Origin: Escherichia coli | GTDB lineage: Bacteria; Pseudomonadota; Gammaproteobacteria; Enterobacterales; Enterobacteriaceae | Direction: 5' to 3' (one strand) | Assembly: GCF_030384885.1 (NCBI RefSeq) | Contig: NZ_CP128615.1 | DNA: 64,000 nt | In this document: positions 35,093-58,789 of the stretch, one piece after another | Layout of the letters: each line of letters begins with the position of its first letter | Numbering within the stretch: the first letter of the stretch is position 1 | Notes under the pieces: generated by a model | The model's input: only the letters and a program-made list of their open reading frames with translations | Database searches by the model: none | What the model was told of the DNA's origin: nothing | Made by a program: the position numbers and the translations under genes

Positions 35093-35505
35093 AGAAAACC
35101 TGGATGCTCGACACCAACATCTGCTCGTTCATCATGCGCGAGCAGCCGGCAGCGGTGCTGAAGCGCCTGGAGCAGGCGGTGCTGCGCGGTGATCGCATTG
35201 TGGTCTCGGCCGTGACGTATGCCGAGATGCGCTTCGGCGCCACCGGCCCGAAGGCCTCGCCGCGCCATATTCAGCTGGTCGACGCGTTCTGCGCGCGCCT
35301 CGATGCCGTCCTGCCCTGGGACCGCGCCGCGGTGGACGCCACGACGGACATCCGGGTGGCGCTGCGCCTAGCCGGGACGCCGATCGGCCCGAATGACACG
35401 GCCATTGCCGGGCACGCCATCGCGGCGGGCGCCATCCTGGTGACGAACAATGTGAGAGAGTTTGCGCGGGTCCCGGGCCTGGTGCTGGAAGACTGGGTGA
35501 AATAA
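35089..35505 (+). CDS. vapC: VapC PIN-domain toxin, copy 2
   Basis: 138-aa ORF, clear paralog of copy 1. Confidence 0.85.
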   Translation: MKKTWMLDTNICSFIMREQPAAVLKRLEQAVLRGDRIVVSAVTYAEMRFGATGPKASPRHIQLVDAFCARLDAVLPWDRAAVDATTDIRVALRLAGTPIGPNDTAIAGHAIAAGAILVTNNVREFARVPGLVLEDWVK

Positions 35506-35546: not shown

Positions 35547-35608
35547 GGCTTTGTTGAATAAATCGAACTTTTGCTGAGTTGAAGGATCAGATCACGCATC
35601 CTCCCGAC
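35547..35608 (+). mobile_element. 62-bp IS903-group left-end remnant
   Basis: GGCTTTGTTGAATAAATCGAACTTTTGCTGAGTTGAAGGATCAGATCACGCATCCTCCCGAC identical to the left end of the full copy at 55903. Confidence 0.75.
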
Positions 35609-35708
35609 TGGATTTGCCCCTATATTTCCAGACACCTGTTATCACTTAATGGAGTGACCCCGAGCCCGTAGACAAATCTGCCCTATAGTTTGAGCATAGG
35701 AGGAGTCT

Positions 35709-35993
35709 ATGGGCACATCACGTTTTACCCCTGAATTTAAGGAAGAGGCCGTCCGCCAGATCACCGAGCGGGGCTATTCTATTGCTGAAGTATCTGAACG
35801 GCTCGGCGTGTCGGCGCACAGCCTATATAAATGGCTCCGGGCTGTTAAGCCTGACAACAGTGGACAGCAGGCACAGGATTTACTGGATGCCAGAACAGAA
35901 ATTCTCAGGCTGAAAGCACAGCTTAAACGCACTGAGGAAGAGCGGGATATTCTGAAAAAGGCAGCGCGGTACTTTGCAAGGGAGCCCGACTGA
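35709..35993 (+). CDS. IS3-family OrfA
   Basis: 94-aa HTH protein MGTSRFTPEFKEEAVRQITERGYSIAEVSERLGVS... Confidence 0.7.
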   Translation: MGTSRFTPEFKEEAVRQITERGYSIAEVSERLGVSAHSLYKWLRAVKPDNSGQQAQDLLDARTEILRLKAQLKRTEEERDILKKAARYFAREPD

Positions 35994-36040
35994 AGTATCG
36001 CTTTATCAACGATCACCGTGAAATCTGGTCGATCGTTACA

Positions 36041-36566
36041 ATGTGTCGGGTCCTTAAGGTTGCCCGTGCCGGATTTTATGTCTGGCTCCATAACCCTGTA
36101 TCTGCCGGAGAAAAGGATAACCAGCGACTGCTGGAACTCATCCGCGACTCCTATACGCTGAGTGGTGGAGTTTACGGTTATCGCAGGGTTCATGGCGATC
36201 TTCGCGAAATTGGCGAAGTGTGCAGCAGAAACCGGGTTGCCAAAATCATGAGGAAAAACAGGATTCAGGCTATACATGGTTATAAAGTGCCACGCGGGAG
36301 CCGGGGACGACCGTCACTGATAGCGCCTAATCACGTGCGGCGTGAATTTACTGTAGTGAAGCCCAATCAGGTGTGGGTCACCGACATCACCTACATCCGC
36401 ACCTGGCAGGGCTGGCTGTACCTGGCAGTGGTTATCGATCTTTTTGCCCGTAATGTGGTGGGCTGGTCGATGAAGCCGACACTGTCGCGCGAGCTGGCAC
36501 TGGATGCGCTGCTGATGGCGGTCTGGCGACGTAAACCTGAAGAAAACGTCATTGTGCACAGCGATA
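36041..36566 (+). pseudogene. IS3-family OrfB, N-terminal part (interrupted after ...NVIVHSD)
   Basis: DDE core present up to HSD, then unrelated sequence. Confidence 0.6.
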
Positions 36567-37960
36567 GTAATAATGCCGATGTCAGTCTTTACCACCACTT
36601 AGTTTGCCGTTTAACCAGATTGGTGTGATTACTGATGCAGTGAAGACCTTCCCGCATCCTGACTCACACAGCGATCGACCTTTTGTGTCCTGCCCTGGAC
36701 CCGTCGGTTGCCGGAAGCGCCTTCATGCGAGGCATCTCCTCACCGATGCGCGTGACTCAAGAAGGGCCTGACGGCTTGTCTCGTTACTGTCCTGTCCGGG
36801 TTATCTGTCTGGAGATTCAACTCTGTTTCCTCACAGGAGCTCTGTCATGGTTGATAAAGTTACCGAAGCTGCCGTTGTGGGTGGCGTGGATACACATAAA
36901 GATTTGCACGTTGCCGCTGTCGTAGATCAGAACAATAAAGTCCTTGGGACTCAGTATTTCTCCACAACACGACAAGGTTACCGGCAGATGCTGGCATGGA
37001 TGACCTCGTTTGGGACATTAAAGCGAATTGGTGTTGAGTGCACAGGTACCTATGGTTCCGGTTTGCTTCGTTATTTTCAGAACGCCGGGTTAGAAGTTCT
37101 TGAGGTGACTGCTCCAGACCGGATGGAGCGACGCAAACGGGGTAAAAGTGACACAATTGATGCTGAATGTGCCGCTCATGCAGCATTCTCAGGCATCAGG
37201 ACAGTTACTCCCAAAACGCGTGATGGCATGATTGAGTCCCTGCGGGTATTAAAAACTTGCCGAAAAACAGCAATATCAGCCCGCAGAGTCGCTCTCCAGA
37301 TTATCCATTCAAATATTATCTCTGCCCCGGATGAATTACGTGAACAGCTCAGAAATATGACGCGCATGCAGCTCATCAGGACCCTGGGTTCCTGGAGACC
37401 TGATGCCAGTGAATACCGCAATGTAACCAACGTTTATCGCATTTCATTAAAGTCCCTTGCCCGACGCTATCTCGAGTTACATGACGAAATCGCTGATCTG
37501 GATGTCATGATTGCGGCAATTGTCGACGAGTTGGCACCTGAGCTGATTAAACGTAATGCTATCGGATACGAAAGCGCTTCACAGTTGCTGATCACTGCCG
37601 GAGACAATCCTCAACGGTTAAGATCAGAATCAGGATTTGCGGCACTGTGTGGTGTCAGCCCGGTCCCCGTTTCTTCTGGAAAAACGAACCGTTACCGACT
37701 TAATCGTGGTGGAGATCGTGCTGCAAATAGTGCACTTCACATCATCGCCATCGGACGCTTACGAACTGACGCAAAAACAAAGGAATATGTCGCCAGGCGT
37801 GTAGCCGAAGGACATACAAAAATGGAAGCGATACGCTGTCTAAAGCGATATATCTCCCGCGAAGTTTACACGTTACTGCGCAATCAAAACAGGCGGATCA
37901 ACAGTATCCCGATAACAGCTTGACTCTTAGAAGGGCGTCCAGGGCAGTCAGTATGGCAGT
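36567..37960 (+). mobile_element. IS110-family insertion sequence (boundaries approximate)
   Basis: Insert splitting the IS3-family orfB; carries an IS110-type transposase; no terminal inverted repeats, as expected for the family. Confidence 0.55.
36847..37923 (+). CDS. IS110-family transposase
   Basis: 358-aa ORF with N-terminal VGGVDTHKDLHVAAV motif. Confidence 0.8.
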   Translation: MVDKVTEAAVVGGVDTHKDLHVAAVVDQNNKVLGTQYFSTTRQGYRQMLAWMTSFGTLKRIGVECTGTYGSGLLRYFQNAGLEVLEVTAPDRMERRKRGKSDTIDAECAAHAAFSGIRTVTPKTRDGMIESLRVLKTCRKTAISARRVALQIIHSNIISAPDELREQLRNMTRMQLIRTLGSWRPDASEYRNVTNVYRISLKSLARRYLELHDEIADLDVMIAAIVDELAPELIKRNAIGYESASQLLITAGDNPQRLRSESGFAALCGVSPVPVSSGKTNRYRLNRGGDRAANSALHIIAIGRLRTDAKTKEYVARRVAEGHTKMEAIRCLKRYISREVYTLLRNQNRRINSIPITA

Positions 37961-37984
37961 GATGACTGGCAGCGGTTCTGCCGG

Positions 37985-38218
37985 GCCAATAATCTGGTAC
38001 CGAGCATGAGCCGTCGCGGCAACTGCTGGGATAATGCAGTGGCAGAATCGTTCTTCAGTTCACTCAAAAAAGAGCGCATCAGGAAGCGGATATACAAAAC
38101 CCGGGACATGGCCCGGGCGGATATTTTCGATTATATTGAAGTGTTCTACAACCGGGCCCGGCGCCACAGTCATCTCGGCGGCGTCAGCCCGGAGGCCTTC
38201 GAAAAGGCCTCGCAGTGA
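37985..38218 (+). pseudogene. IS3-family OrfB, C-terminal part
   Basis: ...NLVPSMSRRGNCWDNAVAESFF...RRHSHLGGVSPEAFE, the typical OrfB C-terminus. Confidence 0.6.
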
Positions 38219-38325
38219 GGACAGAAACTGTCTACCGGAGCGTGGTCACTCCACATTTAAAGAAACGAGCTTTGGTAAACATACCTGTAATGACTCCATA
38301 AAATGGCGCGTCAAACGACACCTAA

Positions 38326-40401
38326 TCAATTAACCCCAAGCGCCTTAAACACGGCATCGACGGGGTCTGCATAAAAGCTGATCTGGAATTTTGAGAACAA
38401 CTCAGCAGGAACCGTTGGAATATCTGAGGCTGAGGCCATTGGGAGCAAAATACGCTTTGCGCCACTGTCCATAGCTAACTGAAGACTGCCTGCAAGATCT
38501 TGAACAGGATTGACGACACCACCTAAAGTCATCTCACCCAAAACAACCATCTGCTCTTGAATCGGTCGGTTCATCAGAATTGAACAGAACGCAATTAATG
38601 CAGCGAGCGATGACTTTGTACTTGGCCCCGTATTGTGGAGCTCAACAACATGGAGGTGATACTCATGATCAGAAAACTTCGCCGACGCACTGATTCTATT
38701 CAGGTTACCTTTGAAATAATCAAAGCCAACACGCACAGCTTCTTTCGCTGCGGTATTCGAACCAAGGCCAGACACTGAGTGTTTACCAGAACCAGCCATC
38801 ATCTGGGTTTCATAGCGATATAACCCAAGCTGCCCAGTGCTTCCCTGAGTAACCAAGTGCACGACACCAGCGCGAGGTAAGCCCTCAGGAATTAGCTTGC
38901 TGCCACCTTGTTCCGGTACATTGATGAAGAATTCTTCTAATGAATCGTTATCGATGTAGCTAAAGTGCACATCAAAAAATTCCATTCCGCCAAGCTTTTT
39001 CAATTGCTCTTTGACTCTACGTCTAGTTTCCAGCGCATAGGTCAGGCAGGCTCTTACATCATCTTTTGTGTACTGTGCGTCGGGGTGTAGTAGCTTTAAC
39101 AAGCCCGAAACAGTTCTGCGTACAGCAATTACATCACGCTGATTAAGGTTATTACCGAGTTTGAAGAACTTATCGATAGCATCCGCAAAACTTCTTTTGC
39201 GCATTTCACGCATGTATTCAGCAAGATAGTCTGTGATTAATCCGTAACTATTGGTGAAAAACTCAGGACGCATCTTCGGTATTTCCCATCCAGGAATATA
39301 GGAATGGAAACGGTCAAAAAAAGCAGTGTCAATCATGGCTTCAGGAAAAGGTGCCAACAGATGACTGGTCTTCACCAGTGTCTCAACGCTTTGATTGATG
39401 TTACCGACGAATACCATGGAAGCCTTCGCTTCGATTGAATCACGACCACGGGCAAAAGACCCTGACGCCATATAATCTTTCATTATTTGGACGCCGTCTT
39501 TGTCTTTAAAGTTAATACCCGCTACTTCATCAAAGGCGACAACATCCCACATTCCGACCAACCCAACTTGGCGCGAGCTCATGTTATAGAACAAGTTCGC
39601 CACAGTTGTTTGTCCGCCCGAGACAAGCAATGAGTTTGGTGAGCACTCCTTGTAGACATGGCTTTTACCTGTCCCTCTTGGTCCGAGCTCACAAACGTTG
39701 TAGTTGTTTTCAACGAATGGGATCATACGAGTGATAAGATGCCATTTCACCCGATGCTCTAAGTTGGTTGGCTCCATACCCACGGAACGAAGCAACACAT
39801 CCATCCACTGATCGGTACTAAAATGTCTTCTGGTTGAAAACACCTCATCCATGTTCATGGACGGCATTTGTATCGGTTTTAAACTCATAATGGAGAAAGG
39901 TGATGTCTTCTGACCTTCCTCAAAGAAATACTGGACGGTAATAATGCACCAGATGCCGCCAGTTAATAATTTTTCGTTGTCTTGTACTATTTTGGTCGGT
40001 ACAAGGGCATCCTTGATACCCAGGTTCGACAACGCAGCTTCATAGACGTCTTTTTTCTGGTTGAGCTTAACGCTTACTTTGTCGATGATTTTAAACGTGC
40101 CGCGTTCACGGATCAGTGACTTCACTTTCTCCGCTTCATCTGGTCGGACATAGTTCTCAGCCAAGATTTTTTTTACATTATCAAGGCCTTGCATTACAAC
40201 TTCGTCGTCATCGGACGCACAATACATGCCTAGTAAATACTCAAGCACATAGACAGGGACGTTAGCGCCTTCTTTCAATTGCTTTGTCAGATCTTTTCGA
40301 ACGACACGGCCTTTAAAATATTGGTTGAGCAATGCGTCTAAATCGGCGCTTTGCATCTGATTTTTTTCGTCTTTATGATCTTGTGAAAAATCAGTTGTCA
40401 T
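38326..40401 (-). CDS. brxL: BrxL (BREX Lon-like protease/ATPase)
   Basis: 691-aa ORF, last gene of the BREX operon; P-loop GPRGTGKSH and C-terminal Lon-protease-like domain. Confidence 0.85.
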   Translation of the reverse strand: MTTDFSQDHKDEKNQMQSADLDALLNQYFKGRVVRKDLTKQLKEGANVPVYVLEYLLGMYCASDDDEVVMQGLDNVKKILAENYVRPDEAEKVKSLIRERGTFKIIDKVSVKLNQKKDVYEAALSNLGIKDALVPTKIVQDNEKLLTGGIWCIITVQYFFEEGQKTSPFSIMSLKPIQMPSMNMDEVFSTRRHFSTDQWMDVLLRSVGMEPTNLEHRVKWHLITRMIPFVENNYNVCELGPRGTGKSHVYKECSPNSLLVSGGQTTVANLFYNMSSRQVGLVGMWDVVAFDEVAGINFKDKDGVQIMKDYMASGSFARGRDSIEAKASMVFVGNINQSVETLVKTSHLLAPFPEAMIDTAFFDRFHSYIPGWEIPKMRPEFFTNSYGLITDYLAEYMREMRKRSFADAIDKFFKLGNNLNQRDVIAVRRTVSGLLKLLHPDAQYTKDDVRACLTYALETRRRVKEQLKKLGGMEFFDVHFSYIDNDSLEEFFINVPEQGGSKLIPEGLPRAGVVHLVTQGSTGQLGLYRYETQMMAGSGKHSVSGLGSNTAAKEAVRVGFDYFKGNLNRISASAKFSDHEYHLHVVELHNTGPSTKSSLAALIAFCSILMNRPIQEQMVVLGEMTLGGVVNPVQDLAGSLQLAMDSGAKRILLPMASASDIPTVPAELFSKFQISFYADPVDAVFKALGVN

Positions 40402-40417
40402 GTTTCACCTCAGCGCC

Positions 40418-43090
40418 TTAGAAAAAATCATCTTGGAATGCCAAATCAATGGTTACCGCGTATTGGCTATAACGGGTTCTCATTTCCGCATTCTCAAGAA
40501 CTAATGTGTATTGAGCGTTTCTATCGAACTGGGAGCCAATAAGCTTTAACCTAGCTTCGCGAGTACGTTCATCCATCACTTTACTCACGCTATCAAAGTT
40601 AATCGTTTCACGACTGGAGACTTCATTACCTTGTGCATCGACGATATAGACATCCAACAACCGTGCGACGAAACGCTCGCCTACAGGGTCTGTCTGAATA
40701 AATCTGACCTTGTCGATATTGTTTACTAATTTGATGGGCTGAGTGGCTGCTACAACACCTACCGGTTGTTTCTCATGTTTTGCTGCTTGTTCTTTTTGTA
40801 GCTCTCGCACATGTAGTACCGGTACGCAGACTTCCTGTAGCATCGCTCCGCCATGCACAAACTTAGCACCACCAACGAAGTGGAAGCGTTGAGCCGCTTT
40901 TGGAAGCAGGAACTCGGTATCACTTGAGCCATGAGCCGTATCGTTAATTGAGCCTTTCCAACAGGCTTCATCTGAAGGCAAGTTATTACCAACGATATAA
41001 CGTTTCTTGGCTTCTATCGCTCCAGCAGGTTTGGTTTTCAACGAGGTTTTGTCAGCCGCTACAAGTGCTTTTTGTTGGAAGAGGAAGCCATGGTCAGCAG
41101 TGATCACAACTCGGCTGCCGTTTAGACGGTTGATGACCCGCCCAACGAGGTCTTTTAGCTCTTCAATGGCACTACGACAGGCTTCAAACGTTTTCTCTTC
41201 AGTTGCTGCCTTATCACCAATCGCATCAATGGTATCGTGATAGATATAAACGACTTCTACGTCTCGAACCTTGTCACGCCCCTCCTGGTTACTCCAGCTC
41301 ATCAGTTCCTTAGAACTCACTGCCATACCACCTACTTTTTGTAGGATGGCGTTGCGGTTGTCTAGACCCTGTGAAGAAATACCATCCACATAAACAGCCG
41401 TGCCTTGCTCTGGCTGGTAACTGAGCGCCTTATGAGGCAATAATGCCGCCATCCCAAGTTGGGTATAACTCGGCAAAACGCCCAACTGCGTAGACACCTC
41501 AGCCTTAAATCGCTTCTCGTTGTTAATGATAGCGCCAAGCTCATTCGCAATTTCAAAACGCAGGGCATCAGAGATGATCACAAACACTCGTTTTGTCTGT
41601 TTCAGACTCAGTCGTGTGCGAACTTCTTTTTCATAGAAGTCATACTGGTGCGGTACGCCAGAAATCTGCCACTTTTCAAGTAATTTTTCATTGGCCAAGT
41701 GACGATCCCATGCAAGGCCAAGCTCATACAAGTACCAGTTGGTATAAATGCTTTCGACTTCGTCGTCGAGCTGACGCAGTATGTCTGCACCTTTACTCAA
41801 TACAGAGTGCACATGCTCATTGAACAAACGGTAAGCCTGGTCAAAACGATAAATGTCTGTGGTATAGGCGTCGTACATTGCTTTCGCGTTATCAAAGTGG
41901 AACCCATCCACATAGCGATTTCGCAAGTGCATTAACTCTTCAGCGTTGCGGATAGCTTCATAAATTGCGAAGTATTCTTTGCGTGACAATGTCCAGTGGC
42001 TAGAAAGACGTCTTGATAAGACCGTATCAAACTGAACCCGGTCTAGCGCTTTACTGCTATCGAGCAAATCACGAACTAAACCACGGATTATGGCCTGTTC
42101 CACAGCTTCGAACGTTTCGCATTCGATAAGCTCAACCGGATGGTACTGCCCAGCACGAGTCGAAATTTCCAACTGTTGGCTAAGCACCTTAGAGATGCTT
42201 TCGTAGTAAGCGGCGAAAGAGCGGCTGTCGCGCCAGCTCACCATAAACGCCAAGGCTGTCGCCCGGCCTGATGCGCTTTTTAGAACATTGTTAAGCAACC
42301 AATCGCGTTCAACACCTTCAATTTGGCTCCAGAATTCAGTACAGAATAATTTCAACACGAAGTCTGAGAAGGTTGGCTCTTCAACTGTATAGCCAAAACC
42401 CTCACTCAGATATGCCCAGAGTGAGGTCTCAAGATCAAACTTTCCTAGCTGGCTCCATAAAGGTTGACCAAGGCTTTCATCTTCGATATAAGCCGCATAT
42501 TCGCGTAGTAACCCAAGCAGAATGTCCGACAAAGACGCAGAATCAGCTTTTACAACCACTGCCATCATCTTTCTGTCTAACGACAGTTCGTCTTCGTTCT
42601 CAGTCACCCACTTTTTTAAACCGGCTATGCGCTGTTTATTGGCAAAAAAGCTCTGGCGCTTACGAATGTGCGTGCGAAGCGCCATTTTCGGAATACCCAG
42701 CTCATTAAGCAGCATTGAGCTGTGATCAGCAAAAAACTGCTCGCTATACAAACGCACGTCTAGCAACCAATCGCGGTCAGGCTCTGGCTCAGCGCTTGGA
42801 AAATAGATAAGGAATTTAGCTTCACGCTCATCTACTTCAATGCGTTTTTTCACTGCCAATACAGACTCATTGCCCATATTGAGGATGGTCAAATCATTTG
42901 GAAGCACCCGTGCAGTTTTATCCGCCGATTTATCGTCTGTTTCTTTTGCAAGCCCTTCTTTTGCAATAGAGAGGGCGTTAGCTAAATGCTCAAGCTCTTC
43001 AGTAAAGCTTTGCTCTGGGTCGTACCAAAACACAATGCGGCTTTGTTCAAATTTGGCAGCAACGCCTTGTGCCAGTTCACTAATCTGCAT
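40418..43090 (-). CDS. pglZ: PglZ (alkaline-phosphatase-superfamily BREX protein)
   Basis: 890-aa ORF with ITADHGF motif. Confidence 0.85.
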   Translation of the reverse strand: MQISELAQGVAAKFEQSRIVFWYDPEQSFTEELEHLANALSIAKEGLAKETDDKSADKTARVLPNDLTILNMGNESVLAVKKRIEVDEREAKFLIYFPSAEPEPDRDWLLDVRLYSEQFFADHSSMLLNELGIPKMALRTHIRKRQSFFANKQRIAGLKKWVTENEDELSLDRKMMAVVVKADSASLSDILLGLLREYAAYIEDESLGQPLWSQLGKFDLETSLWAYLSEGFGYTVEEPTFSDFVLKLFCTEFWSQIEGVERDWLLNNVLKSASGRATALAFMVSWRDSRSFAAYYESISKVLSQQLEISTRAGQYHPVELIECETFEAVEQAIIRGLVRDLLDSSKALDRVQFDTVLSRRLSSHWTLSRKEYFAIYEAIRNAEELMHLRNRYVDGFHFDNAKAMYDAYTTDIYRFDQAYRLFNEHVHSVLSKGADILRQLDDEVESIYTNWYLYELGLAWDRHLANEKLLEKWQISGVPHQYDFYEKEVRTRLSLKQTKRVFVIISDALRFEIANELGAIINNEKRFKAEVSTQLGVLPSYTQLGMAALLPHKALSYQPEQGTAVYVDGISSQGLDNRNAILQKVGGMAVSSKELMSWSNQEGRDKVRDVEVVYIYHDTIDAIGDKAATEEKTFEACRSAIEELKDLVGRVINRLNGSRVVITADHGFLFQQKALVAADKTSLKTKPAGAIEAKKRYIVGNNLPSDEACWKGSINDTAHGSSDTEFLLPKAAQRFHFVGGAKFVHGGAMLQEVCVPVLHVRELQKEQAAKHEKQPVGVVAATQPIKLVNNIDKVRFIQTDPVGERFVARLLDVYIVDAQGNEVSSRETINFDSVSKVMDERTREARLKLIGSQFDRNAQYTLVLENAEMRTRYSQYAVTIDLAFQDDFF

Positions 43091-46758: not shown

Positions 46759-46773
46759 ATGATCTTGCGCCTC

Positions 46774-48537: not shown

Positions 48538-48553
48538 AGTTATCCGTTGCCTC

Positions 48554-51500
48554 TTACTTAATTCTTACTCGGTCGCCAGCTTTGACCGCAGCAATCAGCT
48601 GCTCTCTTAAAGCGGCAAGATAGGCATCAACTTCGGCTTCACTTTCAATGAATCCGGTTGTTACTGACTTAGCCATGGCATCGGTTGAGTTAATCGTTAC
48701 GGTACGTTTTGCAACCGGCTGTGGCTGCACTGGTTCAGAGGCTGGCTCAGGTGCTGGAGCTGCTTTACCGGCTTTCGCTGCTTCCTCTTCGCGTGTCTGC
48801 TGTTCGAGTTCACGACGTCTTTGCTCAGCTTCAGCTTTTTTGCGTTGATCTTCGATAAAGCCATTCAGCAACTCATAGGCTTCGTCCTCGTAACCTTCCG
48901 CTTCAGTTTGCTCACTGATAATTTGTGGTATTGAAGAGGTCGCTTCAATACGCTGTCTGCACATTTGTAACGGGCGCAGTGCTTGGTTCTGTAATTCAGA
49001 CGGTGCATGAGCTTCAGCTAGCGCTTCTTTTACACGTCCGATGCGCAGATCAACACGCTCTAAGGCATGAGTGCGTTTTTCTTCAACCAATGTTGAGTTA
49101 ATTTTTGCCACCTGCTCGATAAGCGGATTAATGTGGCGCAGCTGCTCATACGGCGAGGGCATATTGTAAATGCGTTCTAATTCAGTGAGCGCTTTTAATG
49201 CTTCACTGTCTTTTTCTAACGCAGGTCTATTGGCCTTAAACTTCTCGTTCAATGCGCCAGCAAGGGCTTGCCAAGTTTGAAATTGGCTATTGTAGAAGTC
49301 ATCAAGATCCTCAAAGTCCTCAGCAAACTCTTCAAGGGCATCAGCGTTTTCTAAGAATCGGGTGATAAGAGCGAAGCTTGAAGTTTGCTCAAGAATACCC
49401 GCGACCAATGCAAGACCATCGTCAATTTGAGATTTACCTGGGAAATGGCCTGTCTGTGACTTGGTTCTGAATGATTTAAGCTCTTCATTCCAAGCCAGTA
49501 ATTCATCGCGCACTAATTCGTAGAGCTCCTTTTCACCAGAGCCGGTAAAGGTTTTTGAAAAGATCTCTTTAACAAGACCAGCAGCCTTTTTGATTTGGCG
49601 CTCGTCATGTTGCCTGATTTTATGTACACGGATCTCACCGCGTTTACGCACGCTGGTAAACGGCTCGTAAGCTTTTTTCAACGCCAGATCTGTGCCCTGG
49701 GTACTAAAAGATAACTTTCCAGCCAAGCCCAGCCTTGCAGTGAGCAATAAGATTTCATTGTCTGGCCAGCCATACGGGCGCTTGCCGAAGTGGGCAACGA
49801 TGTCACGTAAGTAAACAGGCTCATTACGCTCGACTTTTAGCGTTACGTACTGCTCAACCTCACGCGTAGCTTCTGGGTTACATTCATCCGCTTGAAGATC
49901 CAGTCCAATCTGAGCAATATCATCAGCAACAAGTACGGCCTGTAGCTCACGCAAAACTTCACCAGGCGTCGCCTTGAGCATGTTCAATTTAGCGAAGGTG
50001 TTTTCGATAACGTATTTGTATGCTTCTTCGACGATGGCACTTGGCGTTGCTGATTTCTTCGGTAGTTTTGTGCCGATAGCGTAAACGTCAGCCTCTGCAA
50101 ACAAAGCTTCAAAATCCGTTCTTAAGCGTTTTTCACGCTCAATATTTTCCATCTGCTTTTCGCGGAGAAGGTGTTCTTGCTCTGGTCGCTGTCCTGAATT
50201 TTGTTTTAAGAATCGGTCAGTTTTTATAAAGGTTGTCAGGTCATCCCAAAGACGTTTATGTTCGCCCAGCTTGACGAGCACGCACCCATCAGCCTCAAGC
50301 GTATGATTGATGCAGGCTTGATCGTGGGAGTAATTTTCAAAGTGCGAATCCAAAGGTGAAATGACTTTAATGACTAGATCTTCCAGCGTGGTGCCATCTT
50401 TTGGATGACCATTGCAAAAACGGCTCACCGCAAAGTCTTGCTTATTAATCGGGTATCGATAGGCACGATTACCTTTCAAAATACCGTCAAATACGATTGC
50501 TGAAAGCTTGTTAGAGACCTCTGACATTTCAACGTCAGTGTGGCGGATCTCGTTTTCAATCTCTTTTTCTTCGTTGGTCAGGAAGATAAATTCATCACCA
50601 TTACGCGCAATCAGCAATTGGCGTTCAAGACGATTCAAGCTCTCTTCAATTTGTTTACGCAGCGCAATTTTATCTGCATCGATTCGATCAATTGACAGCG
50701 TCACAAGGTTGTCTAGTGTGCTTTTGACAACGTCCACATAACGGATCAAGAAAAGAGTTTTTAGAATCTTGCCATCGAATTCTGTTAAGGAATCCAACTC
50801 ACAGGCTTGGTCAATCGTTCGCTTAACCGCTGGCTCCAAAAAGCTTTCAATCGGTGCATAGAAACTGTAAAACGGGATTAACACATCAAGGCCAGAGTCC
50901 TTCATCTGTTTTGCAGCTGATTGGAAAGCATCAAGTAATGAACGCTCACCCATGGCTAAGTGCTTACCCGTCGCGCCTTTTGTTCGAATTGACTCAAACA
51001 CTTTTTGAACCAGCGTGTAGTGGTAAGGCACAAACGGATAGTTGTCCACGAAAGACGGAGCGTCGGTGTAGCCCTTTAGAGACGCAGTTGTCGTTTTATC
51101 AAATGTCAGCTGGTTACGAAGAATGTCGCCCTTTTCAGCAAACACATCGATGAGGTGTGTACGAGCTTCTTCCGTTTTGGACAACAAACGCTTTTGAATA
51201 ACTTCCGAGGTATTCGAGCTCGACAGCTGCAAGCGGGTACTAAAACGCCCTTGAATTTTAGAGAAGTCCTCGCCATCGCGCTTATCCATACCACCAATGG
51301 CAGCATCAATGTCTGCCTGAGAGGTAACAACGACCCAAGCTCTGCCACCACAATATGTGCCAAGATCTTCAGTAATGGTCTGAAGCTTCAACATCATTTG
51401 TGTGTTCTTACCGATAAACTGACCGACTTCATCGACTAAGAAAAGAAGGTTACGATCTCCAGTTCGATCTAAGTATTCATTAACCCACTTACAGAAGTTT

Positions 51501-52231
51501 CGGATATCTAGCGGGAAATTGTTTTCAACCTGTTCAACCCACGCTTTGGCAGACTCTAATGATTGCTCACTGGCATGAGCGAGTGCTTCTGAAAGTTCGT
51601 CTCGATAGAAGTCATAGGCGTCACGCTCCTTTTCCCAAGTTGATTGAGTCAACTCAGCAAATTTGTCCTTGAAAGACATGTATTGATTACGCTTATCAAG
51701 CTCGCGTTCTAAATGCGCAATGTGAGGAAAATCAGCGCAGTATCCTACACGCTCATTAAAGACTTTGAGGAAGACCTTAAGAATGGCATTTTCTCGGTCA
51801 TCCGTATTGGCTCGTGAATCGATGTTAAAAAGAATAACATCAGTGTCTTTGGTAACAGCGTTTTGGATATCGGCCAACAGCATGGCATCGTTGATTTTGT
51901 CTTTAAAAAACTCAAATGCTTGACGGCCTTGGCCATCCTTTTCGACAGACTTATTTTCGAGGAGGTAAGACAAAATTTTCAGGAAGTGAGACTTACCCGA
52001 ACCAAAGAAGCCAGAGATCCACACACCAATTTTTCCTGACATTGATGCGCCACTTTGCGTCACAGATGGAACGTAAGCCTCAAAGAAAGCGCGAAAATGT
52101 CGATCTAGCTCTCGGGTTACAACATACTCATCAAGTTCGACATACACACTGTCATTGTCTTTCTGTTCCGCTTTAACAACGCCGTTAATATCACGCGTCA
52201 ACTTCTTGGAAAAAATCTGTTCAATTTTCAT
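48554..52231 (-). CDS. brxC: BrxC (large BREX P-loop ATPase)
   Basis: 1225-aa ORF with Walker A GFFGSGKSHFLK. Confidence 0.85.
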   Translation of the reverse strand: MKIEQIFSKKLTRDINGVVKAEQKDNDSVYVELDEYVVTRELDRHFRAFFEAYVPSVTQSGASMSGKIGVWISGFFGSGKSHFLKILSYLLENKSVEKDGQGRQAFEFFKDKINDAMLLADIQNAVTKDTDVILFNIDSRANTDDRENAILKVFLKVFNERVGYCADFPHIAHLERELDKRNQYMSFKDKFAELTQSTWEKERDAYDFYRDELSEALAHASEQSLESAKAWVEQVENNFPLDIRNFCKWVNEYLDRTGDRNLLFLVDEVGQFIGKNTQMMLKLQTITEDLGTYCGGRAWVVVTSQADIDAAIGGMDKRDGEDFSKIQGRFSTRLQLSSSNTSEVIQKRLLSKTEEARTHLIDVFAEKGDILRNQLTFDKTTTASLKGYTDAPSFVDNYPFVPYHYTLVQKVFESIRTKGATGKHLAMGERSLLDAFQSAAKQMKDSGLDVLIPFYSFYAPIESFLEPAVKRTIDQACELDSLTEFDGKILKTLFLIRYVDVVKSTLDNLVTLSIDRIDADKIALRKQIEESLNRLERQLLIARNGDEFIFLTNEEKEIENEIRHTDVEMSEVSNKLSAIVFDGILKGNRAYRYPINKQDFAVSRFCNGHPKDGTTLEDLVIKVISPLDSHFENYSHDQACINHTLEADGCVLVKLGEHKRLWDDLTTFIKTDRFLKQNSGQRPEQEHLLREKQMENIEREKRLRTDFEALFAEADVYAIGTKLPKKSATPSAIVEEAYKYVIENTFAKLNMLKATPGEVLRELQAVLVADDIAQIGLDLQADECNPEATREVEQYVTLKVERNEPVYLRDIVAHFGKRPYGWPDNEILLLTARLGLAGKLSFSTQGTDLALKKAYEPFTSVRKRGEIRVHKIRQHDERQIKKAAGLVKEIFSKTFTGSGEKELYELVRDELLAWNEELKSFRTKSQTGHFPGKSQIDDGLALVAGILEQTSSFALITRFLENADALEEFAEDFEDLDDFYNSQFQTWQALAGALNEKFKANRPALEKDSEALKALTELERIYNMPSPYEQLRHINPLIEQVAKINSTLVEEKRTHALERVDLRIGRVKEALAEAHAPSELQNQALRPLQMCRQRIEATSSIPQIISEQTEAEGYEDEAYELLNGFIEDQRKKAEAEQRRRELEQQTREEEAAKAGKAAPAPEPASEPVQPQPVAKRTVTINSTDAMAKSVTTGFIESEAEVDAYLAALREQLIAAVKAGDRVRIK

Positions 52232-52249
52232 TCGGGAGGCTCCCTGCTC

Positions 52250-52843
52250 TTAATTTTTTTTACCGTCTTCAGGCACAAGCTTGAAGGCGCGATAGTAGTT
52301 TTTAGATTCGATCATGCCGAAAGGATGCAAATCCCTTCCGCTATATTCACCCGGATAGAAAAGCACTAATGGCGTGCTACCCATAACGTCTTGCAGAGCA
52401 CTAAGTAACTCATGTCCTCGGATAAGAGGCCACGCACTGCCTAAGCCTGACAGCAACACAAACTCAAGTTCTGATGGCTTATATTTGTCCGCGATATACC
52501 TTGCCACTTTCTCTTGGCTCAGAGGCCCGGCTAGTGTTTTTCGAAGGCCATCAACACCGACTTGCAATTCACGCTGGCAAGCTCGGTCGAAAAGGCCTCG
52601 CTCCTCAAGCATATCTATCAAGACTTCAAAAATATTGAGATGGACAAAGCGGTAACCACGCTTGTTGAGTTTTTCGTCAACGTGCTTAATGTGCTCTCGT
52701 ACAAGCAGTTCATACTTGGCTGGATAGTCAAATACCCAAAATCCAATTTCATTGCCCAAGCCATCGTTTTTCAAAAACTTAGGGCTTTCAATTCGTTCCA
52801 GTATCAGATCAAGCCTGGTCTGAAGAGCCTTCATATTGTGCAC
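52250..52843 (-). CDS. brxB: BrxB (DUF1788)
   Basis: 197-aa ORF between brxA and brxC; assignment by size and synteny. Confidence 0.7.
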   Translation of the reverse strand: MHNMKALQTRLDLILERIESPKFLKNDGLGNEIGFWVFDYPAKYELLVREHIKHVDEKLNKRGYRFVHLNIFEVLIDMLEERGLFDRACQRELQVGVDGLRKTLAGPLSQEKVARYIADKYKPSELEFVLLSGLGSAWPLIRGHELLSALQDVMGSTPLVLFYPGEYSGRDLHPFGMIESKNYYRAFKLVPEDGKKN

Positions 52844-53430
52844 TCCATTACCTCAATCAAATCTTCCCGGCCCAGACGAACTAACCAGTCTTTAACTTCT
52901 GGCATTAGGTAAACAGGTTGTATTTTCTTTGTCCTGCTATCACTCAGGTAGCCACTATCAACCAGTGCCTTAATTGCGTTGTTACCCATTTTTTTGACAG
53001 TTGAGTCAGAAAAACCGCCAAGCTCAGCATATGCCCGCACTCTCGTGTCATAAAACTCAGACCATGCATCAGCGGTTAAAGAGGGTTTATAGGTGCGACG
53101 AGCTTCGGCTAAGGTAAGTCGCATAAAATAAGCGACAACCGGAGAATGAATGAGTAATGACATCATCAGCATTTGGACATAGGCACGTTCACTCGCGGCT
53201 AAAAGATCAGTCATAAACTCATCACCCAGGCCTTCAATACGCCAACGGATTGTTCTGGCATAACGAATAGCCGTCTGACCGGATTTTTTCTGAAGAACAT
53301 TTTGCTCAACGATCAGCGACTTCCACTCATCTTCTGGAAGTTTTTTCAATAGCGATTCTGCGATTATTCTAGATTCAGTTATCAATAAACTGCCTCCGAT
53401 AAGATCGCCTAAATATTCTTTTATATTCAT
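52831..53430 (-). CDS. brxA: BrxA (DUF1819)
   Basis: 199-aa ORF, first structural BREX gene; 13-bp overlap with brxB. Confidence 0.7.
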   Translation of the reverse strand: MNIKEYLGDLIGGSLLITESRIIAESLLKKLPEDEWKSLIVEQNVLQKKSGQTAIRYARTIRWRIEGLGDEFMTDLLAASERAYVQMLMMSLLIHSPVVAYFMRLTLAEARRTYKPSLTADAWSEFYDTRVRAYAELGGFSDSTVKKMGNNAIKALVDSGYLSDSRTKKIQPVYLMPEVKDWLVRLGREDLIEVMECTI

Positions 53431-53439
53431 AAATTCATC

Positions 53440-54366
53440 TCACGATTCGCTATATCCAGGAGCGAGTGCAGCATTGTCAACGCCGTATAGTGCTTCTGGA
53501 TTTTTAAGTGCTAAATGGAACTCTCGCCCATTGCTCTTACAATTCTTTGAACAATCGATATTCCATAAACGCAGTAAATATCCAGCGAACGCAGCTCTTA
53601 TCTCTACACGCAACCTATTGTTTTCCATTGCGTAGTCCATCGATACAGCTTCTGGATGTGCTAGTTTTGGATGAGGTATCAGCTCTAGCTCAACGATTCG
53701 GTTCCATTGCTTATCCCACTGAAGAGTCTCAACTTCGTCGTTAACCTCATCCTCTAACAACTCAACTTCACTTATTCTGGTTAAAACAAAATCCCTAAAT
53801 TCTCTAAGCTTTCTATCGAATGCTCGGACATGCCATCTCAAGCCATTGTCAATCAGGGTATGAGGAACTATTTGCCTGCTCCCATGACCACTCGACAATG
53901 AGGTGTACTCAATATTAATCACAGCGCGCTTATGTATGGCTTCACTAATAGCCGCTACAACTTCCAATTTCGGCTTATTGAGATGGAATGGTGCTTCACA
54001 AGCCATAGGTGGCCTGGCCTTGCCAAGAAAGCCATCACCGAACCCTTGGCTTATCGTCGCAAGAGTTCGAACAACGTCATAATCAAACAACGGCTGGAAT
54101 GCGCTCGTCTTCAAGTGCACTCTGCGCTTTTCGTCATACATAACGTTGTTAGGAGCCAACTCTTTGTACCGCGCAAAATCTTGTGTTGCCACAGACGGCG
54201 CTACGCTAAATCGCTCGGTTAAATAACTACGCCCAGCTTCACCTTTAAATAACAAAGTGAAATCAATATGAGCGAGTCGTTCTCTCTGTGCTTGGCTAAG
54301 CTCTTCAAGTCCAGTGTTGTCTTGCACTGTCAGCCTCTCAATCCATCTGGGACAAGCCCTAATCAT
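53440..54366 (-). CDS. brxR: BrxR-like regulator (wHTH-WYL type)
   Basis: 308-aa ORF immediately upstream of brxA, same strand; assignment by position and size. Confidence 0.6.
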   Translation of the reverse strand: MIRACPRWIERLTVQDNTGLEELSQAQRERLAHIDFTLLFKGEAGRSYLTERFSVAPSVATQDFARYKELAPNNVMYDEKRRVHLKTSAFQPLFDYDVVRTLATISQGFGDGFLGKARPPMACEAPFHLNKPKLEVVAAISEAIHKRAVINIEYTSLSSGHGSRQIVPHTLIDNGLRWHVRAFDRKLREFRDFVLTRISEVELLEDEVNDEVETLQWDKQWNRIVELELIPHPKLAHPEAVSMDYAMENNRLRVEIRAAFAGYLLRLWNIDCSKNCKSNGREFHLALKNPEALYGVDNAALAPGYSES

Positions 54367-54685
54367 TTAAAACTAGGAAGCCATCGATTGAATGCCATCA
54401 AGCAACCTACTTTTTTTCATTAGGTATCATAGTATCAACAAGTCGTCTTGTTGGCTATAAAAATTGGCTTGACGTTGTTCGAATGTTTCTTTTCTGGCCT
54501 TGATAGAAGCTCACGCTGGAATGCCAACTGACGCAATTCATTCTCTCGAACACGCCTAGCAACTTCTGCCTGGGCTGGTAGCTGATCTTGACCCTCCATC
54601 TCCGAACAGCTTTTGTATCTTAAGTTAACGATGTCCGCTGCCGCCGGTATTCCCTCGGGGAGTGATATCCCAGCGCGCTGTGCGG

Positions 54686-54961
54686 GTGGCTTCCATTTCC
54701 ATCAGATGTCCTTCCTGCTCCGCTACTGAAGGCGTGGTGCGTAACGGCAAAAGCACTGCCGGACATCAGCGCTATCTCTGCTCTCACTGCCGTAAAACAT
54801 GGCAACTACAGTTCACTTACACCGCCTCTCAGCCCGGTACGCACCAGAAAATCATTGATATGGCCATGAATGGCGTTGGATGCCGGGCAACCGCCCGCAT
54901 TATGGGCGTTGGCCTCAACACGATTTTACGTCACTTAAAAAACTCAGACCGCAGTCGGTAA
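54686..54961 (+). CDS. insA: IS1 InsA (GTG start)
   Basis: [43 protein letters not shown]... Confidence 0.8.
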
Positions 54962-55383
54962 CCTCACGCATACAACCGGGCAGTGACGTCATTGTTTGCG
55001 CGGAAATGGACGAACAGTGGGGTTATGTCGGCGCTAAATCACGCCAGCGCTGGTTGTTTTACGCGTATGACAGGATACGGAGGACGGTTGTGGCGCACGT
55101 ATTCGGTGAACGCACGTTGTCCACGCTGGAGCGTCTTCTGGGCCTGCTGTCGGCCTTTGAGGTCGTGGTATGGATGACGGATGGCTGGCCGCTTTATGAA
55201 TCACGCCTGAAGGGAGAACTGCACGTTATCAGCAAGCGATATAAGCAGCGCATTGAGCGGCATAACCTGAATCTGAGGCAGCATCTGTCAAGGCTGGGCA
55301 GGAAGTCACTGTCGTTCTCAAAATCGGTGGCGCTGCATGACAAAGTCATCGGGCATTATCTGAACATAAAACACTATCAGTAA
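54880..55383 (+). CDS. insB: IS1 InsB (expressed as InsAB' by frameshift)
   Basis: Overlaps insA in the -1 frame; 167-aa ORF. Confidence 0.8.
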
Positions 55384-55590
55384 GTTGGAGTCATTACCTT
55401 CTTTGCCGCCGGACATTGTCCGGCGCAACACCAAACCGGTCTGGCGGGCTGAGCCAATCCCGCAGGCAAATTCAGCCCTTACCGGATGGCTCAGCCCCCT
55501 ACTCATTGGAATTGGATATTCAACTTTCAGGGGCTACTGCGCCAGACTTCAGTCTTTAAAGTGATTGACTTAGCGCCTGGCACACTCAAT

Positions 55591-55902
55591 TTATTTAGGT
55601 AGCGGGCCTAATTGCACCCCATCAGGATAATACTTCCAGCCATCGCGAATTTTGACATTTTCATCCCACGGAAGTTTGTATTCGCCATTGGCAAGATCGC
55701 GCACCCAGGTCAGGTAATTCTCGCGTTCGCCTCCCGGTTTGCCGACATAGCCCCGGCAGCCAAGGTTGAAAATATTGTTTTCCAACGCCCAGTTTTCACG
55801 CGCTTTATCCACCAGGCGCGGGAACAGCTCTGCGGTAACAATTTCCCATGGGTTGCGGTGCCCCTGCTGAATGACGTTACCGTCATAATTGCAGACCGTA
55901 CC
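55591..55902 (-). pseudogene. C-terminal remnant of an unknown gene truncated by IS903
   Basis: ORF runs into the IS903 left inverted repeat at 55903 with no start. Confidence 0.4.
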
Positions 55903-56959
55903 GGCTTTGTTGAATAAATCGAACTTTTGCTGAGTTGAAGGATCAGATCACGCATCCTCCCGACAACACAGACCATTCCGTGGCAAAGCAAAAGTTCAGA
56001 ATCACCAACTGGTCCACCTACAACAAAGCTCTCATCAACCGTGGCTCCCTCACTTTCTGGCTGGATGATGGGGCGATTCAGGCCTGGTATGAGTCGGCAA
56101 CGCCTTCATCACGGGGAAGGCCCCAGCGCTATTCTGACCTTGCCATCACGACTGTGCTGGTCATTAAACGCGTATTCAGGCTGACCCTGCGCGCTGCGCA
56201 GGGCTTTATTGATTCCATTTTTACACTGATGAATGTTCCGTTGCGCTGCCCGGATTACAGCTGTGTCAGCAGGCGGGCAAAGTCGGTTAACGTCAGTTTC
56301 AAAACGTTCACCCGGGGTGAAATCGCGCATCTGGTGATTGATTCCACCGGGCTGAAGGTCTTTGGTGAAGGCGAGTGGAAAGTCAAAAAGCATGGCCAGG
56401 AACGCCGTCGTATATGGCGAAAGTTGCATCTGGCAGTTGACAGCAACACACATGAAATCATCTGTGCAGACCTGTCGCTGAACAATGTGACGGACTCAGA
56501 AGCCTTCCCGGGTCTTATCCGGCAGACTCACAGAAAAATCAGGGCAGCATCGGCAGACGGCGCTTACGACACCCGGCTCTGTCACGATGAACTGCGGCGT
56601 AAGAAAATCAGCGCGCTTATCCCTCCCCGAAAAGGTGCGGGTTACTGGCCCGGTGAATATGCAGACCGTAACCGTGCAGTGGCTAATCAGCGAATGACCG
56701 GGAGTAATGCGCGGTGGAAATGGACAACAGATTACAACCGTCGCTCGATAGCGGAAACGGCGATGTACCGGGTAAAACAGCTGTTCGGGGGTTCACTGAC
56801 GCTGCGTGACTACGATGGTCAGGTTGCGGAGGCTATGGCCCTGGTACGAGCGCTGAACAAAATGACGAAAGCAGGTATGCCTGAAAGCGTGCGTATTGCC
56901 TGAAAACACAACCCGCTACGGGGGAGACTTACCCGAAATCTGATTTATTCAACAAAGCC
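55903..56959 (+). mobile_element. IS903-group insertion sequence (1057 bp), no target duplication
   Basis: 18-bp terminal repeats GGCTTTGTTGAATAAATC at 55903 and inverted at 56942-56959; flanks GACCGTACC versus AGATGGAAT. Confidence 0.85.
55935..56903 (+). CDS. IS903-group (IS5-family) DDE transposase
   Basis: Sequence recognised as IS903/IS102-type transposase; canonical start may be further downstream. Confidence 0.85.
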
Positions 56960-57040
56960 AGATGGAATAGCCCCGCTCGGTGATTTGGCGGACAGCTTCT
57001 TCCTTAAATTCAGGGGTAAAACGTGGTGTGCCCATAGACT
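56960..57040 (-). mobile_element. About 80-bp fragment of an IS3-family orfA 5' region, inverted relative to 35703-35785
   Basis: Reverse complement closely matches AGTCTATGGGCACATCACGTTTTACCCCTGAATTTAAGGAAGAGGCCGTCCGCCAGATCACCGAGCGGGGCTATTC. Confidence 0.55.
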
Positions 57041-57041
57041 A

Positions 57042-57624: not shown

Positions 57625-57873
57625 TGATGCGGACTACGACGTGCGTTTGGTCCAGGACTGCTGCTACGACCCGGATCGGGATGCCCACGAAGCTCTGTTG
57701 CGTTCCGGGTTCGGCGGACGTGTACAGGTCGTGTAATTTTCGGGCCTCGCATGATCGCGGCCATAGCCGCAGGTGGATTGGTGCGAGGCAGGGCCAGTCC
57801 AAGTCAGGGTGCGGTCATCGCGGCGCCTGCAACTCTCAAAAACCCATCGCCGTAGCGGAGGTCTTGTAATCGC

Positions 57874-58758: not shown

Positions 58759-58789
58759 CCCGCATGGCATAGGCCTATCGTTTCCACGA

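Follow-up and report, generated by a model that had tools for sequence, protein, structure and literature searches.

The BREX island

The window, the 64,000 nt stretch of Escherichia coli DNA analyzed here, carries a BREX island on the minus strand (positions 38326–54366). It is of the pEFER type, with NCBIfam and PADLOC matches and ~97% DNA identity to the island of pEFER. BrxC, PglX, PglZ and BrxL were assigned by NCBIfam scores above the curated cut-offs: brxC (48554–52231) has 1221 bits (cut-off 400), pglX (43090–46758, BREX-1 PglX) 1528 bits (cut-off 500), pglZ (40418–43090, PglZ type A) 945 bits (cut-off 270) and brxL (38326–40401) 1347 bits (cut-off 628). PADLOC matches identify brxA (52831–53430, 5e-108), brxB (52250–52834, 6e-71), brxR, which encodes a WYL regulator (53440–54366), and brxU, a DUF262 type IV restriction gene (46774–48537; HEC-05 match, 6e-234). 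All of these genes are on the minus strand. The genes of a type 1 BREX system are contiguous from 38326 to 53430; brxR is upstream of them and brxU is between brxC and pglX, which is the pEFER-type layout. RefSeq product names agree for brxR and brxU. Phage exclusion and PglX-dependent methylation of a 6-bp motif have been shown experimentally for the pEFER BREX of Escherichia fergusonii ATCC 35469 (PMC8565348). The cargo is the known and already characterized pEFER-type BREX-1 plus BrxU island.

The left scar beside vapC

The vapB/vapC (vagCD) toxin-antitoxin pair (34862–35505, plus strand), annotated in RefSeq records that are 100% identical, forms the conserved left flank of an IS scar. By local BLAST the block that is common to IncR/IncF relatives begins at ~34652. 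The scar itself is on the plus strand and starts with a 62-bp left-end remnant of an IS903-group element (35547–35608), which keeps the complete 18-bp terminal inverted repeat and is called delta-IS102 in the literature (PMC9412624). A 41-bp end fragment of IS2, read directly from the sequence, follows (35609–35649). The first-pass annotation did not have this fragment and placed an IS3-family element directly on the IS903 remnant. The IS3-family element is ISEc15 (35650–38253, terminal repeats TGGAGTGACC...). It is split at 36565/36566 by a 1374-bp IS110-family insertion (36566–37939, plus strand) that has an NCBIfam IS110 transposase match. The boundaries of the insertion were obtained by comparison with plasmid p1658/97, where ISEc15 is intact and annotated as such and 36565 is directly joined to 37940. 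The insertion is probably ISKpn60, a name taken from PMC9412624. No 3-bp duplication surrounds ISEc15 (TAA left, CAT right), and there is no target duplication at the IS110-family insertion.

Beside vagCD, the nested delta-IS102, IS2 and ISEc15 reproduce the layout of IncR locus A, described by Oliva et al. 2022 (PMC9412624) as delta-IS102 cut by IS2, which is cut in turn by ISEc15. Locus A usually has ISKpn60 inserted at the same position (PMC9412624). In PLSDB the scar junction matches at 100% the reference plasmid of that study (CP082454), pKPS30, pEFER and others.

Insertion sequences to the right of the island

BREX homology with pK91-type plasmids ends at 54582 and the arrangement diverges from there. 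A 115-bp IS3-family end fragment (54583–54697, minus strand) matches, in inverted orientation and at 98.3%, the 3' end of an IS3-family element of pK91. The IS1 at 54686–55398 (plus strand) lacks ~55 bp on the left, and with them the left inverted repeat; the right inverted repeat is present and ends at 55398. It has 713-bp matches to other IS1 copies at 92–95%. A spacer and a 3' fragment of amiF, a formamidase gene, are found at 55399–55902 (minus strand), with the amiF part at ~55591–55902, where it is cut by IS903. The amiF fragment matches the amiF gene of large Klebsiella plasmids at 100% identity. It is annotated as a pseudogene in NZ_CP123330.1, and the gene extends 232 bp further in pIncHIA.

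The IS903 at positions 55903–56959 (plus strand) is complete, as had been claimed at first reading. Its length of 1057 bp, the identical 18-bp terminal inverted repeats GGCTTTGTTGAATAAATC and the single transposase gene, which is intact, are those of the IS903 class (~1057 bp). The transposase gives a full-length IS5-family match in NCBIfam, and the RefSeq product name is 'IS5-like element IS903 family transposase'. Between the right end of IS903 and the left end of an ISSen4-like element there is an inverted 5' fragment of ~81 bp from an ISEc15-like element (56960–57041, minus strand, 94% to ISEc15). In pKp_SB62390_1 the corresponding fragment is longer (133 bp) and extends as far as the end of the element itself, which indicates that ISSen4 inserted into the ISEc15-like fragment later. 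The ISSen4-like IS3-family element (57042–57622, plus strand) consists of the left 581 bp, cut where Tn1721/TnAs1-type tet(A) sequence starts. It is annotated in NZ_CP123330.1 as an incomplete family member, and the homology switch is at 57622/57623.

Repeats and target duplications

Pairwise comparison within the window shows a 62-nt direct repeat with 100% identity (35547–35608 and 55903–55964), so that the two identical IS903 left ends in the same orientation reported by the first-pass annotation are real. This identity is no proof of kinship between the two copies because several IS903-group isoforms share the 62 bp. A 90%-diverged isoform, which is complete at the same site in other plasmids, is identical to the remnant over its first 62 bp; the first 168 bp of IS903 are common to a 90%-identical isoform; and the 62-mer matches thousands of records at ≥ 99%.

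The inverted IS3-family match between the two sides is also real, but self-comparison of the window gives an extent of 79 nt (35704–35782 against 56962–57040, 94% identity) and not the 80 bp at 35703–35785 first described. Judged from this identity, the fragment at 56960–57041 is from a relative of ISEc15 rather than from a further copy of ISEc15 itself. Inversion between two ISEc15 copies was considered as the source of the inverted fragments. It is rejected since the right fragment is only 94% identical and its element has its own end preserved in pKp_SB62390_1, where it is beside Zorya and unrelated to BREX.

None of the nested elements has kept a target-site duplication. Reading of the flanks bears out the absence of duplications noted previously at IS26, IS903 and IS1; the IS3 at 11634–12891, as also noted, is flanked by a duplicated CTC (CTC/CTC). 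An 8-bp duplication was looked for in the flanks of IS26 (28108–28927) and none is present. IS903 at 55903–56959 has no 9-bp duplication (GACCGTACC left, AGATGGAAT right), and neither has the whole segment 35547–56959 (ACATGAATG left, AGATGGAAT right). The flank scan is able to detect duplications, since at a different IS903 copy it did find a genuine one of 9 bp, ACGGGAGAC.

The left flank of IS903, GACCGTACC, is paired with AGATGGAAT in the window and in NZ_CP024857 and with CCGAAAAAA in NZ_CP080127 and p1658/97. The right flank AGATGGAAT is in turn paired with amiF, with zorA (pKp_SB62390_1) or with Tn10 tetR(B) (p1506-1). Such alternative left and right flanks of one IS903 copy support assembly by recombination between IS copies. 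A query made of the IS903 right end, GACCGTACC and the amiF continuation from pIncHIA has no contiguous match in PLSDB; thus the original target duplication of this IS903 is preserved nowhere in PLSDB. The arsenic flank of NZ_CP080127 was also considered as a neighbor of Zorya in Klebsiella plasmids, a connection that was dropped as megablast gave no homology. The nesting of IS into IS, the missing duplications and the swapped IS903 flanks support the view, put forward in the first-pass annotation, that the region was assembled by IS recombination rather than by simple transposition.

Distribution of the junctions in plasmids

The plasmid survey covered PLSDB (72,556 plasmids). At least 363 plasmids, some with BREX and some without, have the scar together with the vapC flank, against 367 for the scar junction irrespective of flank; a comparison of these counts gives no sign of movement of the left end. 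Only 7 records have the right-hand amiF|IS903 junction in a single contiguous piece; every one of them has the scar too, and all are at the vapC site. The right-hand IS903 is absent from at least four relatives with the scar and BREX (pKO_3, pCUVET19-1426.1, PCN061p6 and pHS08-175-1), in which two hypothetical genes take the place of IS1, amiF and IS903. Plasmid pKPS30 has kept the scar and lost BREX. No copy of the 21.4-kb segment was found in PLSDB away from vapC, and no copy is flanked by a 9-bp duplication. Several matches that were called as ending exactly at IS903 position 62 (query position 20965) proved to be an artefact of piece joining; these plasmids are simply without the right-hand IS903. 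The right-end piece of ISEc15 is next to brxL in all contexts that were examined, those of non-IncR plasmids included, with matches that begin at 38111, 37418 or 36391.

The left remnant is a fixed backbone scar on the vapC side in hundreds of plasmids, and therefore the proposal that the two IS903 sequences bracket BREX as a unit is not supported. Related plasmids with different junctions had been named as what would count against this proposal; the left junction is shared, but the right side does differ in the relatives.

It is very improbable that the 21.4-kb segment is a working IS903-bounded transposon, with BREX moved by the transposase of the complete copy acting on the left end of the remnant and the right end of the complete copy. 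The two 18-bp outer ends are indeed intact, with the right orientation, and the transposase has a full-length ORF; only one of the IS copies is complete. However, a duplication around the unit and its presence at different sites, the other properties of a compound transposon, are both absent: there is no 9-bp duplication in the window or in NZ_CP080127 (ACATGAATG left, CCGAAAAAA right), the only seven plasmids with both ends have them at the same site, and no second site is found in PLSDB. With 363 of 367 scars adjoining vapC, the left end has in effect stayed in place. The transposase of IS903 prefers to act in cis on ends close by, and given this preference the inner left end at 55903 would be expected to be used far more than an end 20 kb away.

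The 62-bp direct repeats may also be viewed as an active deletion substrate, where recombination removes BREX, leaves vapC joined to the complete IS903 and so explains the BREX-free relatives. Such a deletion, suggested in the first-pass annotation, is physically possible, the repeats being identical and direct. In eight plasmids that lack BREX, the exact vapC site is occupied by a complete IS903-group element, with no duplication. In one of these, P_KP1462023_2 (vapC|IS|DUF2778-Zorya), the IS and its right flank have 99.6% identity to those that follow BREX in pIncHIA, and the base at IS position 51, where pIncHIA differs, is that of the scar. The match fits deletion and recombination between IS copies equally well, and the eight plasmids could represent either the ancestral state or products of the proposed deletion. 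No PLSDB record joins vapC to the IS903 isoform of the window, however: a synthetic query of the vapC flank and the first 300 bp of IS903 gave no 100% match, and the best matches (98.3%) are from the 90%-diverged isoform. The eight plasmids have at least three right flanks (Zorya side, IS110 + mrk, LuxR-lac), plus one with the IS cut by IS26, and this variety is explained no less well by an ancestral complete IS that acted as a recombination hub. Most BREX-free scar plasmids lost BREX otherwise and kept the truncated scar. In addition, a repeat of 62 bp is short for efficient RecA-dependent recombination, being near its lower limit. Deletion between these repeats is considered unlikely.

A third explanation has the two IS903 sequences arise as copies from a replicative IS903 cointegrate that fused a BREX replicon to the vapBC backbone, with later truncation of the left copy. 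The direct orientation of the copies is as expected, but the same 9 bp are predicted outside both copies and ACATGAATG matches neither AGATGGAAT nor CCGAAAAAA. The scar is also present in hundreds of plasmids without a second copy, BREX plasmids among them, and the complete IS903 is within a Klebsiella amiF fragment that is unrelated to the BREX flank of pK91-type relatives. The cointegrate is already contradicted by the junction distribution and is extremely improbable.

Proposed history of the region

The region is very probably an ordinary mosaic plasmid region in which unrelated IS leftovers surround a known BREX island and the two IS903 sequences have separate histories. The anatomy, the junction distribution and the alternative flanks are direct observations. 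The order of events is one that we infer and is not provable from extant sequences. The BREX island occupies the accessory slot just downstream of vapBC (vagCD), which belong to an IncR-derived maintenance module. An IS903-group element would have inserted beside vapC first; IS2 then cut into it and ISEc15 into IS2, and the IS110-family element presumably landed later in ISEc15. The nested scar would then have become fixed in the backbone and inherited whether or not BREX follows. The right end of ISEc15 is what BREX adjoins in all cases, also in non-IncR plasmids, and entry of BREX was therefore most likely through ISEc15, by recombination between two ISEc15 copies or an ISEc15-adjacent rearrangement; conservation of this junction is the evidence that points to it. 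The right side appears to be a second, younger pile of IS in a small sub-lineage, made up of the IS3-family end, the truncated IS1, the Klebsiella-plasmid amiF fragment and the complete IS903. The last of these probably serves as portable homology, with crossovers within it exchanging either side.

Some observations extend to whole defence islands. In the IncR plasmid P_KP1462023_2 the vapC slot has a type I Zorya locus between two direct IS903-group copies, where the window has BREX. To the left of one and the same IS903 copy, whose right flank consists of an ISEc15-like fragment, an AAA ATPase and a nuclease, there is BREX in NZ_CP024857 and Zorya in pKp_SB62390_1; pIncHIA has both systems, next to each other across such an IS. 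A tentative suggestion, rather improbable at present, is that IS903-group copies act here as a swap platform for defence islands. If such exchanges are recurrent and not a few historical accidents, enterobacterial plasmids would have in IS903-mediated homologous recombination a means of trading defence cargo. As a clue to the exchange of defence systems between plasmids, the alternation of BREX and Zorya around shared IS903 copies is a modest one. The region also cautions against reading a cargo as a mobile unit when a short IS remnant and a complete IS, identical over the remnant, surround it; how often each junction occurs in related plasmids tells old scars from active ends.

Comparison with known systems

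Among the papers of the library searched, none combines BREX, plasmid and IS903. The components are already known: the pEFER island by experiment, the left scar as a published hallmark of the IncR type, and the complete bracket in GenBank since p1658/97. As in compound transposons of the Tn903 type, where a cargo gene has an IS903 copy on each side, the window has IS903 ends at both extremities of the cargo and a functional transposase, predicted here from the intact ORF. Unlike Tn903, there is one complete copy only and the copies are direct and not inverted, and the segment is further set apart by the lack of a surrounding duplication and of a second insertion site.

The nested scar adjoining vagCD in locus A (PMC9412624) is identical to that of the window, but that description has only a brxL remnant, without discussion of a BREX island as such, and does not link the scar to a second IS903. 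Plasmid pEFER (Picton et al. 2021, PMC8565348) is likewise IncR, with the same vapC scar and, at the ~97% identity given above, the same genes in the same order (brxR, brxA, brxB, brxC, brxU, pglX, pglZ, brxL). It differs in having a resistance region (strAB, Tn10, TEM-1, Tn3) between the scar and brxL and in the side upstream of brxR, which is without IS1, amiF and IS903. The E. coli IncF plasmid p1658/97 (NC_004998) has the whole bracket found in the window, i.e., vapC, scar, ISEc15, BREX, truncated IS1, amiF and IS903 with the same junctions. Its ISEc15, however, is without the IS110-family insertion, and its IS903 is flanked on the right by IS100 and an arsenic-resistance region in place of the ISEc15-like fragment.

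Composition of the segment

The segment at 35547–56959 has a 62-bp IS903-group remnant at its left end, a complete IS903 at its right end and a BREX island in between. A repeat scan of the whole window shows a 62-nt direct repeat with 100% identity (35547–35608 and 55903–55964) and an inverted pair of 79 nt with 94% identity (35704–35782 and 56962–57040). The complete IS903 (55903–56959) is 1057 bp; its two 18-bp terminal inverted repeats are identical, and its IS5-family transposase is full-length. It has no 9-bp duplication, the outer nine bases being GACCGTACC and AGATGGAAT, nor does the segment as a whole (ACATGAATG and AGATGGAAT). IS26 (28108–28927) was checked for an 8-bp duplication and has none; the IS3 at 11634–12891 has CTC on either side. 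The repeats, the complete IS903, the missing duplications, the IS1 lacking its left end and the CTC at IS3 listed in the first-pass annotation are all present, and these features are far beyond chance.

The 62-bp IS903-group end (35547–35608) is followed by a 41-bp IS2 end (35609–35649), read from the sequence. This layer, between the IS903-group end and the IS3-family element, had been overlooked. The IS3-family element is ISEc15 (35650–38253, terminal repeats TGGAGTGACC...), named from the annotation of an intact copy in p1658/97; comparison with that plasmid reveals a clean IS110-family insertion of 1374 bp at 36566–37939. A type 1 BREX locus with brxR and brxU spans 38326–54366. BrxC, BREX-1 PglX, PglZ type A and BrxL have scores above the curated NCBIfam cut-offs, and BrxA, BrxB, a WYL regulator and a DUF262 protein have PADLOC matches. 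To the right of brxR are a 115-bp end of another IS3-family element (54583–54697), the IS1 without its left end (54686–55398), and a spacer with a 3' fragment of amiF (formamidase) up to 55902, which is 100% identical to amiF of Klebsiella plasmids. To the right of IS903 are an inverted 81-bp piece of an ISEc15-like element (56960–57041), the left 581 bp of ISSen4 (57042–57622) and, beyond 57622, Tn1721-type tet(A) sequence.

ISEc15 has been struck repeatedly. The IS110-family element is at one fixed position (36565/36566), and a group II intron (ltrA) is present about 170 bp upstream of that point (36391–36395) in NZ_CP024857, pK91, pCTXM-2248 and pIncHIA. Since IS110-family elements and group II introns both target specific sequences, these insertions may represent recurrent homing rather than shared ancestry. 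Within BREX, megablast alignments of the central pglX (43846–45186) break or drop to ~91% in nearly all relatives, whereas the loci are otherwise 97–99% identical. This pattern suggests that the target-recognition region has been exchanged, so that BREX motifs would differ from plasmid to plasmid.

The left remnant is a backbone scar

The left 62-bp remnant is an old backbone scar. The scar consists of the IS903-group, IS2 and ISEc15 layers beside the toxin gene vapC. A 303-bp query, the scar together with 150 bp of its vapC flank, matches 363 PLSDB records at a coverage of at least 80%. Among the 60 matches listed, all are 100% identical and 59 are in one contiguous piece; the carriers are Klebsiella, Escherichia, Salmonella, Enterobacter, Citrobacter, Raoultella and Leclercia. 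The scar junction alone (153 bp) is found in 367 records, thus practically every copy adjoins vapC. The scar is already published: locus A of IncR plasmids is delta-IS102 truncated by IS2 truncated by ISEc15, exactly the structure in the window, and ISKpn60 is at the same position in 41 of 48 locus A-linked plasmids (Oliva et al. 2022, PMC9412624). CP082454, the reference plasmid of that study, is among the 100% matches.

The 62-bp identity is not diagnostic of kinship between the remnant and the complete IS903, because a diverged (90%) isoform has the same first 168 bp as IS903 and the 62-mer matches thousands of records.

The right-hand IS903

The right-hand IS903 is rarer than the scar and was probably added later. 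Only seven PLSDB records match the amiF-IS903 junction in a single contiguous stretch (p1658/97, NZ_CP024857, NZ_CP080127, NZ_CP054192, NZ_MT136605, NZ_CP073944 and NC_024960), and every one of them also has the scar. In four plasmids, pKO_3, pCUVET19-1426.1, PCN061p6 and pHS08-175-1, the scar and BREX are present but IS1, amiF and IS903 are missing; their BREX homology stops at window position 54582 and is followed by two hypothetical genes, as in pK91. The rarity of the junction and these four plasmids imply that the bracket is confined to a small sub-lineage and is not definitive of the island.

IS903 as a probable crossover point

The flanks of every IS903-group end in the loci retrieved for comparison were scanned. 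The window and NZ_CP024857 combine left flank GACCGTACC (amiF) with right flank AGATGGAAT; NZ_CP080127 and p1658/97 combine the same left flank with CCGAAAAAA (arsenic region). Right flank AGATGGAAT is in turn found with amiF (window), zorA (pKp_SB62390_1) and the Tn10 tetR(B) side (p1506-1). The same scan recovered a true 9-bp duplication, ACGGGAGAC, for another IS903 copy, and is therefore able to detect duplications where present. The flank swaps have the form that homologous recombination between IS copies would be expected to produce, and these alternative pairings support the general proposal of IS-mediated assembly.

The more specific proposal, that the IS903 repeats could mobilise or delete the BREX segment, was also tested. 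In PLSDB neither the unit nor its left end was found anywhere but beside vapC, and no duplication is present, which argues against mobilisation. For deletion, PLSDB was searched with an artificial sequence in which the vapC flank runs straight into the initial 300 bp of IS903. Eight records have a contiguous match, but they carry the 90% isoform of the IS, and no record matches the join at 100%; the exact deletion product was thus not found. These eight plasmids have no duplications and several different right flanks, and may carry the ancestral complete element that gave rise to the scar. One of them, the IncR plasmid P_KP1462023_2, has the order vapC, IS, DUF2778-FUSC-Zorya; over 7 kb it shares 99.6% identity with the IS and adjoining flank on the right-hand side of BREX in pIncHIA. 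It is possibly a natural deletion product, but recombination between IS copies is an equally good explanation. PLSDB has no match to the reciprocal junction that the original insertion of IS903 into amiF predicts.

Neighbouring loci

Two vapBC paralogues (31147–35505) are ~86% identical (31281–31580 and 34857–35156). Between them is a Gabija-like pair, a GajA-like ATPase (32003–33565; 1.5e-101) and a short GajB-like UvrD helicase (33550–34572; 1.7e-47), which would be a second candidate defence system directly upstream of the BREX module. The block common to all IncR/IncF relatives begins at ~34652, just upstream of vapB, and a 36-nt sequence there (34654–34689) repeats 31123–31158, upstream of the first vapB, with 81% identity. 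The closest record to window 34652–64000 is plasmid unnamed1 of E. coli AREA_497 (NZ_CP123330.1), which matches 52000–64000 at 100% in one piece and differs upstream of vapB, with a TrlF-like AAA ATPase and an S-4TM effector in place of the Gabija-like pair. This difference points to another recombination boundary at ~34573–34690.

The same slot beside vapC holds, in an IncR plasmid, a type I Zorya locus (zorABCD with FUSC and DUF2778 genes) between two direct IS903-group copies. Zorya loci are at NZ_OY856405.1 23856–36734, NZ_PP376100.1 26818–33876 and NZ_CP084853.1 7178–19531. Zorya directly adjoins BREX in pIncHIA, and in pKp_SB62390_1 it has on its right the same IS903 and right flank as those found after BREX in NZ_CP024857. 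Past the ISSen4/ISEc15-like fragment, relatives have an AAA-ATPase gene (~725 aa) and a nuclease-domain gene (~860 aa) with flanking IS903 copies (NZ_CP024857.1 33752–38532; NZ_CP084853.1 2033–6786). These genes may form another defence pair; they are absent from the window, which changes to tet(A) sequence at 57623.

Elsewhere in the window, an autotransporter ORF of 1651 aa (2828–7783; beta-barrel domain 1e-88) has four tandem repeats of 372 nt (124 aa) at 3945–5360 with 64–96% identity. A pair of 44-nt AT-rich, internally palindromic repeats, CATTAATGCTAATGTA.GCATACATTAGCATTAATG (18282–18325 and 18830–18881), lies ~550 bp apart on either side of a small ORF beside a DnaQ-like exonuclease gene.

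Proposed history and comparison with known systems

The most likely order of events would begin with insertion of an IS903-group element beside vapC in an IncR-type backbone. IS2 and then ISEc15 would have nested into it, with loss of the distal parts. BREX is joined to the ISEc15 right end in every context seen, non-IncR plasmids included, so it probably arrived by recombination or rearrangement at ISEc15. One sub-lineage would then have exchanged the side upstream of brxR for IS debris with the Klebsiella amiF fragment, into which IS903 inserted. Later crossovers within IS903 would have altered the right flank, and ISSen4 would have inserted into the adjacent ISEc15-like fragment before truncation by the tet(A) transposon region.

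The bracket is incidental. The observation is genuine; it is also ordinary and already accounted for, and the alternation of BREX and Zorya around the same IS903-group copies in related plasmids is only a mildly interesting by-product. No paper in the literature collection searched links BREX, plasmids and IS903, so the bracket itself is undiscussed there. The full bracket is present in p1658/97. Plasmid pKPS30 has the scar and has lost BREX entirely; pEFER has the scar, but with a resistance region between it and brxL. The island itself corresponds to the pEFER system, and experiments on pEFER have demonstrated that BREX and BrxU defend against phage (PMC8565348).
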